Shown here piece after piece: positions 17,471-24,427 of a stretch of 64,000 nucleotides of DNA (position 1 is its first letter; the number at the start of each line of letters is the position of its first letter). The DNA lies in contig NZ_FMAY01000002.1 in assembly GCF_900094925.1 (NCBI RefSeq), positions 1-64,000 of the forward strand, read 5' to 3'. This stretch comes from Kosakonia oryzendophytica (GTDB lineage Bacteria > Pseudomonadota > Gammaproteobacteria > Enterobacterales > Enterobacteriaceae). The position numbers were made by a program, and so were the translations under genes. Under the pieces are notes generated by a model. That model was not told the origin of the DNA. It ran no database searches and saw only the letters and a list, made by a program, of their open reading frames with translations.

Positions 17471-19057
17471 TTATGTTGCGCTGCGCACGCTTTCCCAGCT
17501 TAACCCGAAGCGGGCAAGGTATTTGCGCAGGCGATCCGCATCATTTGGGTTCGCCTTTTTCTGCCGGGAAACCGCAAACAGTTCGCGCCCGGCTTCCGAC
17601 AGCGTCTGACTGCGGCGGCAAATGTCGATCACGGTTTCCAACTGGCGTTGATCAAAGAGATCAAGCGTGCTGAGATCCAGCGGCAGCGTGGAAGAGACCG
17701 GTGTGCCGCGCCAGTGATGCTCCAAGCGCTGTAGTTCTTCATCGACCAGCGCGAGCGTAATGCGCCCTTGCTCGGCCAGCGTGGCCATGCGCGCAATCGA
17801 CGTACTGAGTTCGCGGAAATTTCCCCGCCATGCCGCATGTGGTGAACAGGCGAAAGCCAGGTAGCGCTCACGGGCATCTTTATCGAAACGGATTTGTGTC
17901 TGTTGCTCCAGCGCAAAGCGTTGCAGCTCATACTCAATATTGGGGGCAATATCCTCCCGGCGATCCGCCAGCCCCGGCAGCGCGAACGTCCACATATTGA
18001 TACGCGCATAGAGATCTTCACGAAAGCGCCCTTCATCCACCCACTGCTGCATATTCCGGTGGGTTCCGGCAATCAACTGGAAGTCGCTGTGTACTTCTTT
18101 ATCGGCACCGAAGGGAAAAAAGGTTTTCTCTTCAATCGCTTTTAGCAGCATGGCCTGCTCATCCAGCCCTAATTCGGCGATTTCGTCGAGAAACAGTACG
18201 CCGCCATCTGCTTCACGCAGCAGGCCAGTACGTGCCTGTTGTGCGCCCGTAAAGGCACCTTTCACATGACCGAACAGCGTCGACATGGCGTTATCGCCGC
18301 GCAGCGTCGCGCAGTTCACCGCCACCAGTCGCCCCGGCACCAGATGGCGTGACTGGCGTAGCTGGAAAATACGCTTTGCCAGAAACGATTTGCCCGCACC
18401 GGTGGGGCCTGTGAGCAGAATGGGTGCCGTTGAACGCAGCGCGACGCGTTCAATCTGATCGATAAGCCGGTTAAAGGTGGTGTTGCGGGTATCAATGCCG
18501 GATTTGAGAAACGACACCGATTGCTGTTGTTCACGCTGGAAACGGCTGGTTAACGTGGCGTAACGGCTTAAATCGAGATCGATCACCGAACAGACGCCAG
18601 CGGCGATCGCCTCATCAGACGAACCTTTTGCCGCCGGGCCGGTTTGCAACAGGCTGGCGGGCAGATAACGCGCTTCCGTCAGCAAAAACCAACAGATTTG
18701 TGCGACGTGCGTCCCGGTGGTGATATGCACCAGATACTCTTCGTTATCCGTATCGAACGGATAGTGCGTGGCGAAATCGAGAAAGGCGGCATACACCTCT
18801 TCAAAATCCCAGGGATCTTTAATCGTCACCGCATGCATGCGAACGCGGGTATGGGGGGAGAGTTGCGCAATATCGTCCGCAGCCTGTTGCGCCAGCCCTT
18901 TATCCCGCGGTTGATGCAGCAGTTCGAGACGATCGACAGGAAAATCTGGCTGCTGACATAGCCCTACCGTTGGCCGCCATTTGCGAAAGCGGTTTTGCCG
19001 CTTTCCCCGTTTATCCAGCACCGTACCCAGGACACCAATCACCACCCGACGTTTCAT
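17471..19057 (-). CDS. rtcR: sigma-54-dependent transcriptional activator RtcR (CARF - AAA+ - HTH)
   Basis: 528 aa. The N-terminal region aligns with E. coli RtcR (…KWRPT.GLCQQ…DRLELLH…EVYA.L.DFA…ITTGTHVAQICWFLL.EARYLPA.L.Q…). It carries a Walker A GPTGAGKSFLAKRI, the GAFTGA sigma-54 contact motif and the C-terminal NDADRLRKYLARFGLSWE motif. Confidence 0.9.
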   Translation of the reverse strand: MKRRVVIGVLGTVLDKRGKRQNRFRKWRPTVGLCQQPDFPVDRLELLHQPRDKGLAQQAADDIAQLSPHTRVRMHAVTIKDPWDFEEVYAAFLDFATHYPFDTDNEEYLVHITTGTHVAQICWFLLTEARYLPASLLQTGPAAKGSSDEAIAAGVCSVIDLDLSRYATLTSRFQREQQQSVSFLKSGIDTRNTTFNRLIDQIERVALRSTAPILLTGPTGAGKSFLAKRIFQLRQSRHLVPGRLVAVNCATLRGDNAMSTLFGHVKGAFTGAQQARTGLLREADGGVLFLDEIAELGLDEQAMLLKAIEEKTFFPFGADKEVHSDFQLIAGTHRNMQQWVDEGRFREDLYARINMWTFALPGLADRREDIAPNIEYELQRFALEQQTQIRFDKDARERYLAFACSPHAAWRGNFRELSTSIARMATLAEQGRITLALVDEELQRLEHHWRGTPVSSTLPLDLSTLDLFDQRQLETVIDICRRSQTLSEAGRELFAVSRQKKANPNDADRLRKYLARFGLSWESVRSAT

Positions 19058-19192
19058 GTTTATCCTAAAAGATAAAAATAGATATTAAAGGATAAAAAAT
19101 ACCTTCCTGATGCGCAACCGCTCTGCACGTTGTTAAAAATAAAATATTTATTTATCAATGAATTAAAAATTTATCTGGCGGATTTTTTATGT

Positions 19193-19208
19193 TGGCACGT
19201 ATCTGGCA
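19193..19208 (+). promoter_or_regulatory. sigma-54 (-24/-12) promoter of the RtcR-controlled operon
   Basis: TGGCACGtatcTGGCA matches TGGCACG-N4-TTGCA with one mismatch and correct GG/GC spacing. It lies in the rtcR divergent intergenic region, facing the + strand operon. Confidence 0.75.
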
Positions 19209-19319
19209 ATAACTACCCATGTCAGCATGCTGGGTCCGCAGGGGGTAACACTCCCCGCCGGCGCACCGGGAACGGCGTAAGTCGTTATCCAGGGGGCGTT
19301 CCGTCAGCAGAAAGACATG

Positions 19320-19363
19320 TGCGAAAAGTCGGTTTTCTATCGGGTTCGACTCCCGAATTCGCA
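19320..19363 (+). ncRNA. tRNA-like minihelix (acceptor stem plus a canonical T-arm) embedded in the roughly 310-nt leader of the RtcR-regulated operon
   Basis: TGCGAAA … TCGGG-TTCGACT-CCCGA-ATTCGCA. The 5-bp T-stem closes a 7-nt TTCGACT loop (T54-T55-C56-R57-A58 pattern) and is flanked by a 6/7-bp acceptor-like stem. It resembles the tRNA-like modules of bacterial Y RNAs encoded next to rtcB in Salmonella. Confidence 0.45.
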
Positions 19364-19534
19364 ACTCATTATCCCTTGAGATAACCATGATGCAGTACCC
19401 GGTAGCCAGCTGTACATGGCTACCCCCAACGACCGCCGGTAACGGCGCCGGGCGGCAGGCAAAACACCGTTTCCCCTGTGGTTTCGCCCCTGCATCCGCG
19501 GTCGTTAAGGCAAAACACGATTAAGGAGAGAGTC

Positions 19535-20677
19535 ATGACCAATAAAATCACAATACGTAAAGGTCAGTTAGGTCTGCTGGCAAGAGAGGGCGACTATTAT
19601 CAGGTGCTGGAAGCCGGTGAGCACCGCCAGCCATGGTTCAACAAGCCCGAGCTGCTGGTGGTGAATATTGACGGCAGCGACGTGGCGGAAGGCCTGGCGG
19701 AGTACCTGCGTCGTTTTCAGCCGCAATGGGTTGAGCGTTACTGCCTGGTGGCCGATATGGATACGCATGAAGCGGGCGCGCTTTACCGGGATGGCGTATT
19801 GCAGGAGATCCTGCCGCCCTCTACGCGCCGCCTGTACTGGAAAGCGGATGAAACGCTGAAACTGGTGCGCATGGACACGCGTGACGTGAGCGTGCCGACA
19901 GAGATCCTCAATGCGGTGTTACAGCCGAAGCGCGGTGCAACGGTAAAAGGTCGCGATAACATTCTGGCGGTGCAGGTACCGGCATGGCATGTGGGTGTTT
20001 TAAAAGTGGATGGCGCAACACAGGGACTCTTACCGGCAGGTTTAAGCGGTTACTGGAAAGTGAACCACCTGGTCGAAGCGGACGTGGTGGATCTGCGCTT
20101 GCAGGTGCTTGAGGTGAGCGGCCAGGAGATCCTCACCAAAGACAAAGTGACGCTGCGCCTGAACCTGGCGGCGAACTGGCGTTATACCGATGTCCTGAGC
20201 GCGTTTGCGCAGTTAAGCAAACCGCTGGAGCACCTTTATCGTGAGTTGCAGTTTGCCCTGCGTGAAGCGGTGGGAACGCGCACCCTTGATGAGCTGCTGG
20301 AAGATAAGCAAATCATTGATGAAGCCGTTAGCGCGCAGGTGGCGGGTCGTATGGCGGCGTTTGGGATTGAGGTGGCATCGCTGGGTGTTAAGGACATCAT
20401 TTTACCCGGTGAGATGAAAACCATTCTGTCGCGTTTAGTGGAAGCGGAAAAATCGGCGCAGGCCAACGTGATCCGCCGCCGGGAAGAAACTGCCGCGACC
20501 CGTTCGTTACTGAACACAGCAAAAGTGATGGAAAGCAACCCGGTAGCATTGCGCCTGAAAGAGCTGGAAACCCTGGAACGTGTAGCGGAACGCATCGATA
20601 AGATCTCGGTCTTCGGTGGTCTGGATCAGGTATTACACGGCCTTGTGAACATCAAAGGAAGCCATGATGCAAAATAA
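19535..20677 (+). CDS. SPFH/band-7 (stomatin/prohibitin/flotillin-like) domain protein
   Basis: About 380 aa from ATG 19535 (AAGGAG RBS; MTNKITIRKGQLGLL…). It has a long coiled-coil-like SPFH C-terminal part (…LRLKELETLERVAERIDKISVFGG…). First gene downstream of the sigma-54 promoter. Confidence 0.7.
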   Translation: MTNKITIRKGQLGLLAREGDYYQVLEAGEHRQPWFNKPELLVVNIDGSDVAEGLAEYLRRFQPQWVERYCLVADMDTHEAGALYRDGVLQEILPPSTRRLYWKADETLKLVRMDTRDVSVPTEILNAVLQPKRGATVKGRDNILAVQVPAWHVGVLKVDGATQGLLPAGLSGYWKVNHLVEADVVDLRLQVLEVSGQEILTKDKVTLRLNLAANWRYTDVLSAFAQLSKPLEHLYRELQFALREAVGTRTLDELLEDKQIIDEAVSAQVAGRMAAFGIEVASLGVKDIILPGEMKTILSRLVEAEKSAQANVIRRREETAATRSLLNTAKVMESNPVALRLKELETLERVAERIDKISVFGGLDQVLHGLVNIKGSHDAK

Positions 20678-21893
20678 CGATTATCAGTTGCTGGCGCAGG
20701 AGAACACCGCGCCGGTGAAAATGTGGACCCACGGCGTACCGGTAGAACCGGAAGCGCGTGAGCAACTGCTGAAGACGGCAAAAATGCCATTTATCTTCAA
20801 ACACCTGGCGGTGATGCCAGATGTACATCTGGGAAAAGGCTCGACCATCGGCAGTGTGATCCCGACCAAAGGGGCGATTATCCCGGCGGCGGTTGGCGTG
20901 GATATTGGCTGCGGCATGATTGCGGTACGCACCTCGCTGTTGGCGGGGGATCTACCGGACAACCTGAGCGGATTGCGGAGCGCCATCGAGCGGGCCGTAC
21001 CGCATGGCCGTTCGGTGAACCGTGCGAAGCGTGATAAAGGCGCCTGGGAAAATCCGCCCCAGGAAGTGAATAACCACTGGGCTTTGCTGGCACCGCGTTT
21101 TCAGCGTTTAACGGAGAAATACCCCCAATTGTTGAAAACCAATAATCATCAGCATCTGGGTACATTGGGAACCGGTAACCACTTTATTGAAATATGTCTG
21201 GATGAACAGCAGCGTGTATGGGTGATGTTGCACAGCGGGTCGCGTGGTGTCGGGAACGCCATTGGTAATGTGTTTATTACTCTGGCGCAGCAAGATATGC
21301 AGCAGCATATTGCGAACCTGCCGGACAGAAACCTGGCTTACTTTCAGGAAGGTAGCAAACACTATGATGACTATCTGGAAGCGGTGGAGTGGGCGCAGGA
21401 TTTTGCCCGCCATAACCGTGAAGTGATGATGGCGCGGGTACTGTCTGTACTGTCGAAGACCGTCACCAAACCCTTTATGACGCAGCAGGAAGCCGTAAAT
21501 TGTCATCACAACTATGTGCAAAAAGAGACGCACTTTGGTGAAGCGGTATGGGTCACGCGTAAAGGTGCGGTTTCGGCGCAAAAAGGGCAGATGGGGATCA
21601 TTCCTGGTTCGATGGGGGCGAAAAGCTTTATTGTCCGCGGGCTGGGTAATGAAGATAGTTTCTGTTCCTGTAGCCACGGCGCCGGACGGACCATGAGCCG
21701 TACGGCGGCGAAAAAACGTTTTACGGTGGATGATCAGATCCGCGCCACTGCGCATGTGGAGTGCCGTAAAGACAGCGATGTGATCGATGAGATCCCGATG
21801 GCTTACAAAGATATTGATGCCGTGATGGCGGCGCAGGCCTCGCTGGTGGAAGTGGTGCATACCTTGCGTCAGGTGGTGTGTGTAAAAGGATAA
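20664..21893 (+). CDS. rtcB: RNA-splicing ligase RtcB (3'-phosphate/2',3'-cyclic phosphate RNA ligase)
   Basis: 409 aa, strongly similar to E. coli RtcB throughout (…MPFIFKH.AVMPDVHLGKGSTIGSVIPTKGAIIPAAVGVDIGCGM…NHFIEICLDE…CHHNYV…SCSHGAGR…RQVVCVKG). Its start overlaps the SPFH stop by 14 nt. Confidence 0.95.
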   Translation: MMQNNDYQLLAQENTAPVKMWTHGVPVEPEAREQLLKTAKMPFIFKHLAVMPDVHLGKGSTIGSVIPTKGAIIPAAVGVDIGCGMIAVRTSLLAGDLPDNLSGLRSAIERAVPHGRSVNRAKRDKGAWENPPQEVNNHWALLAPRFQRLTEKYPQLLKTNNHQHLGTLGTGNHFIEICLDEQQRVWVMLHSGSRGVGNAIGNVFITLAQQDMQQHIANLPDRNLAYFQEGSKHYDDYLEAVEWAQDFARHNREVMMARVLSVLSKTVTKPFMTQQEAVNCHHNYVQKETHFGEAVWVTRKGAVSAQKGQMGIIPGSMGAKSFIVRGLGNEDSFCSCSHGAGRTMSRTAAKKRFTVDDQIRATAHVECRKDSDVIDEIPMAYKDIDAVMAAQASLVEVVHTLRQVVCVKG

Positions 21894-21910
21894 AAAGAAG
21901 GATAACCAGT

Positions 21911-22702
21911 ATGGAATATCAAGGGGTTGACACCGCCATGCGAGAACGCGTGCGGCAAACGTTATGCGAGGTGGAGCGGAAATACCGCATAAAAGTGCTG
22001 TATGCCTGCGAGTCCGGGAGTCGTGGCTGGGGGTTTGCGTCGCCAGACAGTGACTACGATGTGCGGTTTTTGTATGTTCATGAACCCCAGTGGTATCTGC
22101 GGGTTGAACCGCAGCGCGATGTCATAGAACTGCCCATAGACGATGAGCTGGATGTGTGTGGTTGGGAGTGGCGCAAAGCGCTGGGGTTGCTGAAAAGCGC
22201 TAACCCGACCTTAATCGAATGGCTGGATTCACCGGTGGTTTATCAGCAGGAGGATGCCACGCTGGCGGCGCTGCGTACGCAGGTGCCGCACTGGTTTTCA
22301 CCGGTCAGAGCACGCTGGCATTACTATTCGATGGCGAAGAAAAACTTTCATGGTTATTTGCAAGGGGAAGCGGTGCGGCTGAAGAAATATTTCTATGTGC
22401 TGCGCCCGTTGCTGGCAGTGCGCTGGATAGAAGCCGGCAAAGGAATGCCGCCGATGCGTTTTGCCACTCTGCTGGAGGGCAGCAACCTGGGCGCTCCCCT
22501 GCGTGCGGAAATCGATGAATTGCTAGTGTTAAAACAGCGGGCGGGAGAAGCGCAATACGGCCCGCGACGCCCTGTATTGCACGACTTTATCAAAACGGAA
22601 CTGGCGCGCGGTGAAGTACCGGACGTGCTGCCGGAGAGCCGTAGCGGTAAGATGAGCGATCTCGATCAGTTGTTGTACCAGACCGTGTTGTCTTCTTCGT
22701 GA
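21911..22702 (+). CDS. Pol-beta-superfamily nucleotidyltransferase (GS…DxD motif), of the kind often encoded beside rtcB
   Basis: About 263 aa from ATG 21911 (RBS AAGAAGGA). It carries an NTase signature (…YACESGSRGWGFASPDSDYDVRFLYV…). It replaces rtcA in the operon. No rtcA or rsr ORF exists before the convergent lysC. Confidence 0.65.
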   Translation: MEYQGVDTAMRERVRQTLCEVERKYRIKVLYACESGSRGWGFASPDSDYDVRFLYVHEPQWYLRVEPQRDVIELPIDDELDVCGWEWRKALGLLKSANPTLIEWLDSPVVYQQEDATLAALRTQVPHWFSPVRARWHYYSMAKKNFHGYLQGEAVRLKKYFYVLRPLLAVRWIEAGKGMPPMRFATLLEGSNLGAPLRAEIDELLVLKQRAGEAQYGPRRPVLHDFIKTELARGEVPDVLPESRSGKMSDLDQLLYQTVLSSS

Positions 22703-22788
22703 ACGTTGCCGGAGAGTGCTGCACTTACCCAGCCTGCTTACTCCCGCAGGCTGGGTAACGCGAAGTCACCCTCCGGCAGCATCGCCTG

Positions 22789-24138
22789 TCACTCAAAGAG
22801 ATTATGGTGCAGTTTCTGCACCACTTGCTCGGCTTCTGCGCCCGGCACCAGGAAGCAGAGGTTATGGCTGGATGCACCGTAACAAATCATGCGGATGTTG
22901 AACGGATCCAACACGCCAAACACCTCTTTACCCACGCCGCACGCTTTCGACAAATCGTTGCCAATCAGCGCGACCAGCGCCAGGTTCTCTTCCACTTCCA
23001 CGCGGCACAGTGATGAGAGTTCTGTCAGCAACCCCTGCGTGAGTAATGTATCGCCCGTAGACGTTGAGCCAGTGGTATCCAGCGTCAGCGCCACGCTCAC
23101 TTCGGAAGTGGTGATCAAATCGACGGAGATGTTATGCCGCGCCAGAATGCCGAATACTTCCGCAAGGAAACCGCGGGAGTGCAGCATATTCAGGCTGTGC
23201 AATGTCAGCAGCGTTTGTTTGCGGCGCAGCGCCAATGCACGGAACAGCGGCGGGTTGTTGGTTTTATTGCACACCAGCGTGCCACCGGCTTTAGGCTCTT
23301 TGCTGGACCCCACAAATACCGGGATATCACTGCGTACCGCAGGCAGCAGTGTGGCAGGATGCAGCACTTTCGCACCAAAGGTCGCCATTTCTGCCGCTTC
23401 TTCAAAGGCGATTTCATCAATACGTTTTGCCGCTGGCACGACACGCGGATCGGTGGTGTAAATACCGGGGACGTCGGTCCAGATGTCGACACGCGTTGCG
23501 TGCAACGCTTCACCGAGAAGCGCGGCGGTGTAGTCGCTGCCGCCACGGCCCAGCGTAGTGGTGCGACCTTTGGCCTCGCTTCCGATAAAGCCCTGAGTGA
23601 TCACCAGACCGTCGGTAAGGCGAGGTGCAAGCTGCTGCGCAGTCAGTTCCGCCAGCGCAGGGACATCCGGCTCGGCGCGGCCAAAACGATCGCTGGTACG
23701 CATGACTTTACGCACATCAAACCACAGCGCCTGTACACTGCGTTCACGCAGCACTTCAACAAACAGCAGGGTCGACATCAACTCGCCGTGGCTAACCAGT
23801 TCATCGGTCAGGGCGGTGGAGGTAGCAAGCGAGGCAGCTTCTGCAAGCGTGCTGATGTTTTCCAGCAGGCGTTCAATCTCTTCGCGGATCACGTCCGGGT
23901 TGGACATCCGCTCCAGAATATCGAACTGAATTTTACGAATAGCATCGAGTTTGACGAACCGTTCACTGGCCTCCAGTCCTTCTGCCAGCGCGACCAGCAG
24001 ATTGGTCACGCCCGCAGAGGCGGAGAGCACCACCAGGCGAACATCGGAATCGGAAAGCACCACGTCCGCACTACGGTTCATGGCATCATAATCGGCAACG
24101 CTGGTGCCGCCGAATTTGGCGACAACTAAATTAGACAT
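22789..24138 (-). CDS. lysC: lysine-sensitive aspartokinase III
   Basis: 449 aa (MSNLVVAKFGGTSVADYDAMNRSADVVLSDSDVRLVVLSASAGVTNLLVALAEG…), near-identical to E. coli LysC. Confidence 0.95.
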   Translation of the reverse strand: MSNLVVAKFGGTSVADYDAMNRSADVVLSDSDVRLVVLSASAGVTNLLVALAEGLEASERFVKLDAIRKIQFDILERMSNPDVIREEIERLLENISTLAEAASLATSTALTDELVSHGELMSTLLFVEVLRERSVQALWFDVRKVMRTSDRFGRAEPDVPALAELTAQQLAPRLTDGLVITQGFIGSEAKGRTTTLGRGGSDYTAALLGEALHATRVDIWTDVPGIYTTDPRVVPAAKRIDEIAFEEAAEMATFGAKVLHPATLLPAVRSDIPVFVGSSKEPKAGGTLVCNKTNNPPLFRALALRRKQTLLTLHSLNMLHSRGFLAEVFGILARHNISVDLITTSEVSVALTLDTTGSTSTGDTLLTQGLLTELSSLCRVEVEENLALVALIGNDLSKACGVGKEVFGVLDPFNIRMICYGASSHNLCFLVPGAEAEQVVQKLHHNLFE

Positions 24139-24214: not shown

Positions 24215-24425
24215 ACAAAACAACTACGATTTCCCCAGAAGTGCTCCACCTTGCGAAACGCCCGACTGGGAACGTTTCTGGTGACAACCCAGAGGATTCA
24301 GCCTCTGTAGCCGATAACAAACGCTGCCAGGCGTTTTGCTATCTCGGCGTTGCTCCCCCTCAGGTGTTTTCTTCAGTTTGGCTCTTCCAACACCGTGTAC
24401 CTGGGCAACGCGCCTCTTCTGGCTA
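24215..24425 (-). ncRNA. lysine riboswitch (L-box) in the lysC leader
   Basis: The minus-strand sequence …AGAGGCGCGTTGCCCAGGTACACGGTGTTGGAAGAGCC…CTACAGAGGCTGAATCCTCTGGGTTGTCACCAGAAACGTTCCCAGTCGGGCGTTTCGCAAGGTGGAGCACTTCTGGGG… matches the E. coli lysC L-box aptamer nearly base for base. Confidence 0.85.
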
Positions 24426-24427
24426 TT

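Follow-up and report, generated by a model that had tools for sequence, protein, structure and literature searches.

A probable RtcR/sigma-54-inducible RNA-repair operon with a Band-7 protein and a tRNA-like leader RNA on the variable yjbD-lysC island of a Kosakonia-like enterobacterium

Introduction

[quoted passage not shown] Here we describe a locus of this kind in a 64-kb stretch of DNA from a Kosakonia-like enterobacterium (hereafter the window), where positions 17471-22702 hold rtcR and, divergent from it, a sigma-54 promoter, a structured leader and the genes for a Band-7 protein, RtcB and RlaP. The locus is read as an RtcR/sigma-54-inducible Band-7 / tRNA-like RNA / RtcB / RlaP operon for RNA repair, situated on the variable yjbD-lysC island, and to this reading we assign a probability of roughly 0.7.

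In Pseudomonas aeruginosa, the corresponding locus consists of rtcR (PA4581), PA4581.1, PA4582 (the Band-7 protein PaFlo8), rtcB, PA4584 (RlaP) and rtcA (PA4585), where PA4581.1 is an odd, intergenic 'tRNA-Arg4' devoid of CCA and the four proteins PA4582-PA4585 rise together under stress. Two RlaP proteins from Pseudomonas extend RNA 3'-OH ends by one or two nucleoside monophosphates in vitro, and they are needed to restore the aminoacylation of over-damaged tRNA (PMC12776372). In Salmonella, RtcR senses tRNA fragments with 2',3'-cyclic phosphate (2',3'>P) ends (PMC7790460), and YrlA and YrlB, both encoded by the rsr-yrlBA-rtcBA operon, are free-standing RNAs (bioRxiv 10.1101/312249).

The protein cassette of the window is a member of this known, computationally described class, in a form devoid of rtcA and of the cloverleaf b7a-tRNA. 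The original prediction, made from the sequence alone, had taken it for an uncharacterised module. That view gives way before the comparative-genomics class as credited in the citing papers, the P. aeruginosa PA4581.1-PA4585 locus and the recurrence of the arrangement among the loci fetched in our study, and the gene-neighbourhood survey presents it as largely a common, already annotated one.

Comparison with described systems

With the Band-7 / b7a-tRNA / RtcB / RlaP systems of the P. aeruginosa type, the window shares the divergent rtcR, the sigma-54 promoter, the 5' domain of the leader and the downstream RtcB and RlaP. Its Band-7 protein falls into the same clade, with 58-59% identity to the proteins of Pseudomonas sp. 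21 (locus L007) and P. peli (L008). In contrast to these systems, it lacks rtcA and the cloverleaf b7a-tRNA and keeps only the upstream element of minihelix type, and its leader measures about 315 nt, compared to 450-700 nt.

The rtcR-rtcBA locus of E. coli encodes RtcR and RtcB proteins 61% and 73% identical to those of the window, and its promoter and the region similar to an integration host factor (IHF) site can be aligned with the window; however, its leader is short (about 45 nt) and unstructured, rtcA is present, and genes for Band-7 and RlaP are absent from the locus. The likeness to the rsr-yrlBA-rtcBA operon of Salmonella lies in the control by RtcR and in the combination of a scaffold-type protein with operon-encoded RNAs bearing tRNA-like T-arms, whereas the unit in the window has neither a TROVE/Rsr gene nor a YrlA match at E<=10, and the partner is an SPFH protein instead of Ro60. 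Islands of Citrobacter, Klebsiella and E. coli annotated as 'slipin + nucleotidyltransferase' occupy the same yjbD-lysC site and have the leader, RlaP and Band-7 (77-83% identity), but they lack rtcB and, in E. coli, also rtcR in cis. Finally, the SPFH domain and the coiled-coil helix are common to the window protein and to membrane SPFH scaffolds such as stomatin, HflK/C and QmcA, from which it differs by lacking the N-terminal anchor and the NfeD partner.

Genes of the operon and their products

Genes of the window were called from a listing of open reading frames (ORFs) combined with profile searches in Pfam, NCBIfam and PADLOC (Table 1). Divergent from rtcR, the promoter is followed by the leader, Band-7, rtcB and rlaP, and the operon runs through a hairpin towards the convergent lysC; all four reading frames are intact. 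The rtcB ATG at 20664 precedes the Band-7 stop at 20677, which makes the 14-nt overlap that had been predicted (11 nt if an alternative ATG at 20667 is used), and 17 nt separate the rtcB stop from the rlaP start. The initial assignment of the products as RtcR, SPFH, RtcB and a PF10127 nucleotidyltransferase agrees with the profile searches.

RtcR matches the Pfam families RtcR (2.8e-82), Sigma54_activat (2.1e-49) and AAA_lid_14, the NCBIfam equivalog RNA_repair_RtcR with 832 bits against a cutoff of 650, and the PADLOC model RtcR--CARF_AAA_HTH at 5.9e-265. In RtcB, the metal-binding and guanylylation residues are conserved as equivalents of D75, C78, H168, H185, H281 and H337 of the E. coli protein. 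The PF10127 match of RlaP, a family with the Pfam title "RlaP, RNA repair pathway DNA polymerase beta family", spans profile positions 1-248 of 249, and the translation presents the GS and DxDxD motifs (ESGSRGWG...DSDYD); a sequence search of the PDB returned no relative of RlaP.

The Band_7 profile matches residues 147-318 of the 380-residue protein (2.2e-27). In its AlphaFold model (pLDDT, the per-residue model confidence, 89), three five-strand beta modules at 2-44, 70-114 and 143-186, with short helices between them, precede an SPFH core at about 190-290 and a C-terminal helix of about 60 residues (292-353), so that the protein has the SPFH fold with a coiled-coil helix. No membrane segment is predicted, the maximum 19-residue Kyte-Doolittle mean being 1.34, and the beta-rich, soluble-looking N-terminus places its three modules where membrane SPFH proteins carry the anchor. 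The proposal of a membrane-associated scaffold is therefore not supported, and in the mechanism proposed in the Discussion the protein would be soluble and probably ring- or cage-forming. A likeness of the N-terminal modules to the vault and its major vault protein (MVP) was weak once the modules were tested alone. The nearest homologue comes from Kosakonia sp. WA-90 (99% identity), full-length homologues of the RtcB-associated clade are 42-82% identical to the window protein, and a library clustered at 50% contains 548 representatives (E<=1e-30) of the family with this full-length architecture.

The absence of rtcA and rsr, also anticipated, was borne out: tblastn with E. coli RtcA against the whole window found nothing (best E 0.22), and 17471-22702 has no coding space for rsr, leaving a TROVE-domain gene without a place in the unit. 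In the ORF listing the operon likewise has no NfeD gene.

Table 1. Positions of the genes, control elements and RNA structures of the operon in the window
Feature	Position	Strand	Evidence
rtcR: CARF-domain, sigma-54-dependent AAA+ transcriptional activator with helix-turn-helix (HTH), 528 amino acids (aa)	17471-19057	-	Pfam, NCBIfam, PADLOC
TTATC/GATAA repeats, putative RtcR upstream activating sites	19060-19097		adjoin rtcR start; conservation
IHF-like site TATCAATGAATTA, fits WATCAANNNNTTR	19153-19165	+	consensus match only; between repeats and promoter
Sigma-54 promoter TGGCACGTATCTGGCA (GG 19194-95, GC 19206-07)	19193-19208	+	GG-N10-GC spacing, TGGCACG-N4-TGGCA, conservation
Leader 5' domain: H1 19229-33 / 19304-08, P1 19238-44 / 19253-58, P2 19259-76 / 19281-19303	19229-19308	+	RNAalifold, pair counts
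tRNA-like minihelix: acceptor-like stem TGCGAA / TTCGCA (19320-25 / 19358-63), 14-nt linker, T-arm 19340-44 / 19352-56, loop TTCGACT	19320-19363	+	inspection, alignment
Conserved hairpin GGTAGCCA / TGGCTACC, downstream of conserved GCAGTACCCG block	19401-19424	+	11 enterobacterial leaders
Leader 3' domain: outer helix 19431-40 / 19494-19503, inner helix 19447-63 / 19471-87	19431-19503	+	RNAalifold, 11 Enterobacterales
Band-7/SPFH ('slipin') protein, 380 aa	19535-20677	+	Band_7 match, predicted structure
rtcB: 3'-phosphate / 2',3'-cyclic phosphate RNA ligase, 409 aa	20664-21893	+	PF01139 2.5e-132
rlaP: RNA-ligase-associated Pol-beta nucleotidyltransferase, 263 aa	21911-22702	+	PF10127 4.5e-93
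GC-rich 12-bp hairpin between rlaP and convergent lysC	22726-22757		RNAfold of 22695-22795: -55 kcal/mol

Control region

Transcription from the sigma-54 promoter is predicted to start near 19218-19220. The promoter pattern alone occurs in the window at about the level of chance, with three matches (one mismatch allowed) against 2.1 expected. It was nevertheless accepted, because its TGGCACG and TGGCAA are invariant among the aligned enterobacterial loci, because a match to the pattern lies upstream of Band-7 in 33 of the 41 rtcR-linked loci, and because the promoter of E. coli rtcBA, CTGGCACGACGGTTGCA, can be aligned with it.

The TTATC/GATAA repeats are, on their conservation, likely RtcR binding sites. 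Their TTATC, GATAA and GATA positions are unchanged across a six-species alignment, and similar repeats occur at the corresponding position in loci of Pseudomonas and Burkholderia, in the rtcBA intergenic region of E. coli and in the E. coli island devoid of rtcR. In the IHF-like site, the TCA positions are invariant in the enterobacterial alignment; E. coli rtcBA carries AACAATGAATTAA at the equivalent place, and the region of the window also lines up with the IHF-like ATCAATGAATTA box of E. coli rtcBA.

Structure of the leader RNA

Between the promoter and the Band-7 start, the whole leader is, as judged from alignments, a covariation-supported structured RNA under selection for structure beyond its tRNA-like piece. 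The case for structure is made through covariation, because single-sequence folding is uninformative, the fold being indistinguishable from shuffles (z -1.46). In the 5' domain, helix H1 closes two hairpins, P1 and the long P2. Across 28 sequences from gamma- and betaproteobacteria, 89% of the cells of P1 and P2 are paired, double-change cells number 116 against 41.7±5.6 in shuffles (0/500) and at most 64 in controls with slid partners, and the covariation score reaches 0.556 against 0.224 (0/500) and at most 0.186, respectively. Since the leader sequences are phylogenetically related, the shuffle statistics overstate their independence, and the slid controls represent the safer comparison.

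For the whole leader, RNAalifold gave 53 pairs on 11 enterobacterial sequences, with 95.5% of cells paired. Changes on both sides were found in 35 pairs, compared to 11.9±2.5 in shuffles (0/500) and 5-11 when partners were slid by one to three columns, many of the compensatory changes among these 11 rows stemming from a single divergent Providencia sequence. The hairpin at 19401-24 forms in all 11 leaders with differing stems, e.g., GGUCAUCG/CGAUGACC and GCCACCG/CGGUGGC. In the 3' domain of the same 11 sequences, compensatory changes affect 7 of 9 pairs of the outer helix and 7 of 13 of the inner one, with 95-97% of cells paired; across bacterial classes the MAFFT alignment of this domain is too poor, and its register cannot be aligned.

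A covariance model of the 5' domain (R1), for which the window was one of the training rows (window score 55.3 bits), matches 19 held-out loci with E from 2e-10 to 6e-5, some of them without rtcR, which argues that the 5' domain belongs to the RNA and not to RtcR-specific regulation. R1 finds no such domain at E. coli rtcBA. Weak R1 matches (E 0.01-0.95) were obtained in nine cyanobacterial loci (L051, L057, L058, L061, L066, L069, L070, L072, L081), in all of which the first tRNA-like gene follows the match about 20 nt downstream and the tRNA-like genes are 1-3 kb from the Band-7 gene; such matches hint that the RNA domain may reach cyanobacteria. Searched against Rfam, the leader had no match at the gathering threshold or at E<=10, the YrlA and tRNA families included, and in related loci only RF00005 was found, on the cloverleaf units, leaving the 5' domain without a covering family. 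The extended RNA architecture around the tRNA-like element may be new.

The tRNA-like element itself is a tRNA "top-half", consisting of a perfect T-arm and a 6-bp acceptor-like stem, and not a full tRNA. The tRNA-like leader of the original prediction accordingly stands in these two parts and not as a complete tRNA, given that ARAGORN with default settings reports no tRNA in the window and that the tRNA and YrlA families of Rfam do not match. An 87-nt 'tRNA-Leu' returned by ARAGORN with thresholds lowered to 80% was rejected, as its acceptor and D-arm are broken. All 28 of the 28 aligned sequences share an unchanged GGTTCGAnTCC, and there is covariation in the T-stem.

In most other loci, ARAGORN at default settings detects one or two tRNA-like genes on the strand of Band-7 and 240-420 nt upstream of it, often with aberrant anticodon loops and without CCA. 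By sequence inspection, a unit of minihelix type typically comes first, and a cloverleaf unit stands about 70 nt further on. The window element is homologous in position and structure to the first of these, which the window and all Enterobacterales keep while lacking the cloverleaf b7a-tRNA. In other lineages, elements of the minihelix class, to which the window element belongs, have stems of 6-8 bp that vary in sequence and are separated from the T-stem by 10-27 nt. Of 112 T-loop elements, 64 have an acceptor-like stem of 6 bp or more, compared to 15 of 112 in a displaced control. Both T-loops are lost in P. entomophila and P. soli (L017, L032).

Some loci present further RNA features. At 4610-4660 of L013, an Rfam YrlA match below the threshold (20.6 bits, E 0.09) covers the T-arm of the minihelix together with the D-arm of the next cloverleaf, so that the tandem units mimic the permuted T-arm to D-arm order of YrlA; it is produced by the T- and D-loop motifs and was dismissed. 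In many proteobacterial genomes and metagenome-assembled genomes (MAGs; L010, L021, L027, L029, L031, L035, L040, L042, L052, L054, L077, L079), the region just upstream of the b7a RNA and Band-7 carries, on their strand, an array of 4-19 tRNA genes of canonical appearance, which suggests a link between such arrays and the Band-7 repair module. In an Acidovorax MAG, an RNase P RNA gene (RF00010, 194.8 bits; L033 2213-2648, minus strand) is the direct neighbour of rtcR, and only a few hundred bases separate it from the tRNA-like leader.

Distribution of related loci and the yjbD-lysC island

Synteny was studied in 80 loci, obtained by a profile-guided scan with one genome per species and compared by tblastn. 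In 41 of them rtcR is divergent from Band-7, with rtcB after Band-7 in 29 of those 41, while rtcB lies within about 1.2 kb downstream of Band-7 in 39 of the 80. The genes rtcB, rlaP and rtcA follow Band-7 in varying combinations. The full form, rtcR / leader / Band-7 / rtcB / rlaP / rtcA, is found in Pseudomonas and many Betaproteobacteria (L007, L008, L013, L018, L028, L036, L038), and forms with rtcB and rlaP devoid of rtcA in Burkholderia (L012) and P. entomophila (L017). Enterobacter sp. BIGb0383 (L085) also shows the exact arrangement of the window. Klebsiella, Superficieibacter, Mangrovibacter, Lonsdalea and Citrobacter (L002-L005, L047, L083, L084, L086) hold rtcR, leader, Band-7 and rlaP without rtcB, and an RtcR-controlled 'repair' operon can therefore be free of a ligase. 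Extra genes are inserted between Band-7, rtcB and rtcA elsewhere: a zf_Tbcl treble-clef zinc finger (1.1e-10), a DUF5677 protein (8.2e-19) and an ORF without a Pfam match (L007 6169-6567; L033 8239-9009 and 6158-6904).

In E. coli, 1625 of 5426 complete genomes (about 30%) have the leader, a "slipin family protein" and a "nucleotidyltransferase domain-containing protein" at yjbD-lysC, with neither rtcR nor rtcB in cis (e.g., L082 5147-7599 in E. coli O145 RM9872). This island retains the sigma-54 promoter CTGGCACGCTTCTCGCA and the TTATC/GATAA repeats, and its operon may be controlled in trans by the RtcR of the distant rtcBA locus. In strain 14EC033 the module is replaced by the insertion sequence (IS) IS1.

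The flanks of the window operon were identified as an SBF/BASS transporter, yjbD (DUF3811) and lysC with its lysine riboswitch, which places the unit, together with the transporter, at the predicted yjbD-lysC site. The riboswitch (RF00168, 92.8 bits; 24231-24426, minus strand) lies upstream of lysC, as expected there. The hairpin following rlaP is the probable end of the operon; it has no T-run and was not called by the consensus terminator scan, and a terminator function is conjectural. yjbD-lysC is a variable island shared by different species, with toxin-antitoxin genes and IS elements: a Gp49/HigB-type toxin with an HTH antitoxin in Citrobacter and Enterobacter (L083 1259-1950; L085 124-857), and a frameshifted zeta toxin in E. 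coli (L082 7632-8560). At the place of the relatives' toxin-antitoxin genes, the window carries the SBF transporter. A phage-borne origin of the module was considered and rejected, as relatives are rare in viral contigs (4 loci).

Discussion

In regard to the mechanism, ribotoxin or stress damage would generate tRNA fragments with 2',3'>P ends that bind the CARF domain of RtcR, as shown in Salmonella and presumed here. RtcR on the TTATC/GATAA repeats, with IHF bending the DNA, would then activate sigma-54 polymerase at 19193-19208, a promoter backed by conservation, and a single transcript would hold the structured leader together with Band-7, rtcB and rlaP. RtcB would join 3'-P or 2',3'>P ends to 5'-OH ends, which is the established activity of its family and agrees with its conserved catalytic residues, while RlaP would rebuild one or two nucleotides on trimmed 3'-OH ends and make over-damaged tRNAs functional again, as the in vitro activity of its Pseudomonas homologues suggests. 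RtcA would be dispensable for ligation, because RtcB takes 3'-P and 2',3'>P ends directly, and its absence may narrow the signals able to switch RtcR on. The Band-7 protein could serve as a scaffold or cofactor with the leader RNA as its cognate non-coding partner, a role that we infer entirely from the analogy to Ro60 and Y RNA in Salmonella. Such a Ro/Y-RNA-like repair cofactor would be in line with the conserved linkage of the two and with the published prediction.

Most of the original prediction is compatible with this picture. The genes, the RtcR/sigma-54 control architecture, with divergent rtcR and promoter conserved across loci, the tight operon, the insertion site and the guess of an RNA damage and repair module within conflict biology, which agrees with the published prediction for the class, were all upheld; the parts not supported are the uncharacterised status, the membrane association and a leader that is tRNA-like beyond the T-arm and the acceptor-like stem.

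Several observations weigh against the repair-operon reading. Deletion of PaFlo8 had no phenotype in assays of growth, virulence, motility, biofilm and oxidative stress (PMC13086221). Relatives with rtcR, Band-7 and RlaP but without RtcB imply that Band-7 and RlaP cannot depend on a ligase encoded in cis, and the tie of Band-7 to the leader RNA or to RtcB is one that we infer. The leader is contiguous with the mRNA, with no evident processing site or internal terminator, so that it might act only in cis. Furthermore, no covariation supports the acceptor-like stem in Enterobacterales, and 4 of the 11 sequences (from Klebsiella, Citrobacter and E. coli) have lost its 5' strand, which makes the importance of this stem in Enterobacterales uncertain.

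A more far-reaching possibility is that the leader belongs to a large, uncatalogued family of structured non-coding RNAs, extending from Enterobacterales to Betaproteobacteria and perhaps to Cyanobacteria. Its members would combine a 5' domain of two covarying hairpins with one or two units derived from tRNA and with a long 3' helix, and the RNA would form a Ro/Y-RNA-like or vault-like ribonucleoprotein (RNP) with a soluble, cage- or ring-forming SPFH protein and organise tRNA repair by RtcB and RlaP. We hold this extension to be tentative, and it is more doubtful than true as a whole.

All of the rival explanations appear less likely than the repair operon. One of them is that the leader is purely a cis-acting 5' untranslated region (UTR) that tunes elongation, stability or translation, maybe through the binding of a protein or of damaged or uncharged pieces of tRNA, and is not an RNP partner in trans. 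Such a role would fit its location, which is after the promoter and before the first start codon with nothing terminator-like following, and so would the dispensability of the cloverleaf in Enterobacterales and of all T-loops in P. entomophila and P. soli. However, the 5' domain and tRNA-like units are also found at loci without rtcR or a recognisable sigma-54 promoter, the weak cyanobacterial R1 matches precede tRNA-like genes 1-3 kb from the Band-7 gene, which does not suit a UTR, the predicted structure leaves the Shine-Dalgarno sequence free, and YrlA and YrlB of the analogous Salmonella operon are stand-alone RNAs. We consider a leader acting only in cis unlikely, if the most serious of the competitors.

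It has also to be considered whether the locus is an anti-phage or abortive-infection system, in which the CARF domain of RtcR would sense infection and the SPFH protein and the nucleotidyltransferase would be effectors instead of repair factors. CARF domains are typical of defence signalling, PADLOC includes an RtcR model, and the island also houses toxin-antitoxin genes (HigB/Gp49-HTH and zeta toxin). On the other hand, RtcB retains its catalytic residues, homologues of RlaP repair RNA ends in vitro, and the SPFH protein has no membrane segment. In PADLOC-DB 2.0 only RtcR matches, through CARF-protein models, with no match for Band-7, RtcB or RlaP, and the scarcity of relatives in viral contigs points in the same direction, making a defence function improbable. 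That the full rtcR-Band-7-rtcB-rlaP-rtcA system has here decayed to a remnant, with little function left after the loss of rtcA and the cloverleaf unit, both present in the full form, and with rtcB lost too in sister lineages, is hardly credible in view of the four intact reading frames with full-length profile matches, of leader pairs maintained by compensatory changes, which requires selection, and of reduced forms so widespread and conserved that 1625 E. coli genomes carry one.

What the Band-7 protein and its RNA do in RNA repair has been a standing question since 2016, and the reduced enterobacterial versions bear on it: they dispense with rtcA and with the cloverleaf, sometimes also with rtcB or with rtcR in cis, and they occur in enterobacteria that are easily manipulated, namely Enterobacter, Citrobacter, Klebsiella and about 30% of E. 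coli. The 5' RNA domain, which lies outside every Rfam family, gives defined helices and an RNA target for experiment. If the Band-7 protein and the leader do form an RNP, the minihelix-only form of enterobacteria would be a minimal, genetically tractable version of it, present also in about 30% of E. coli.

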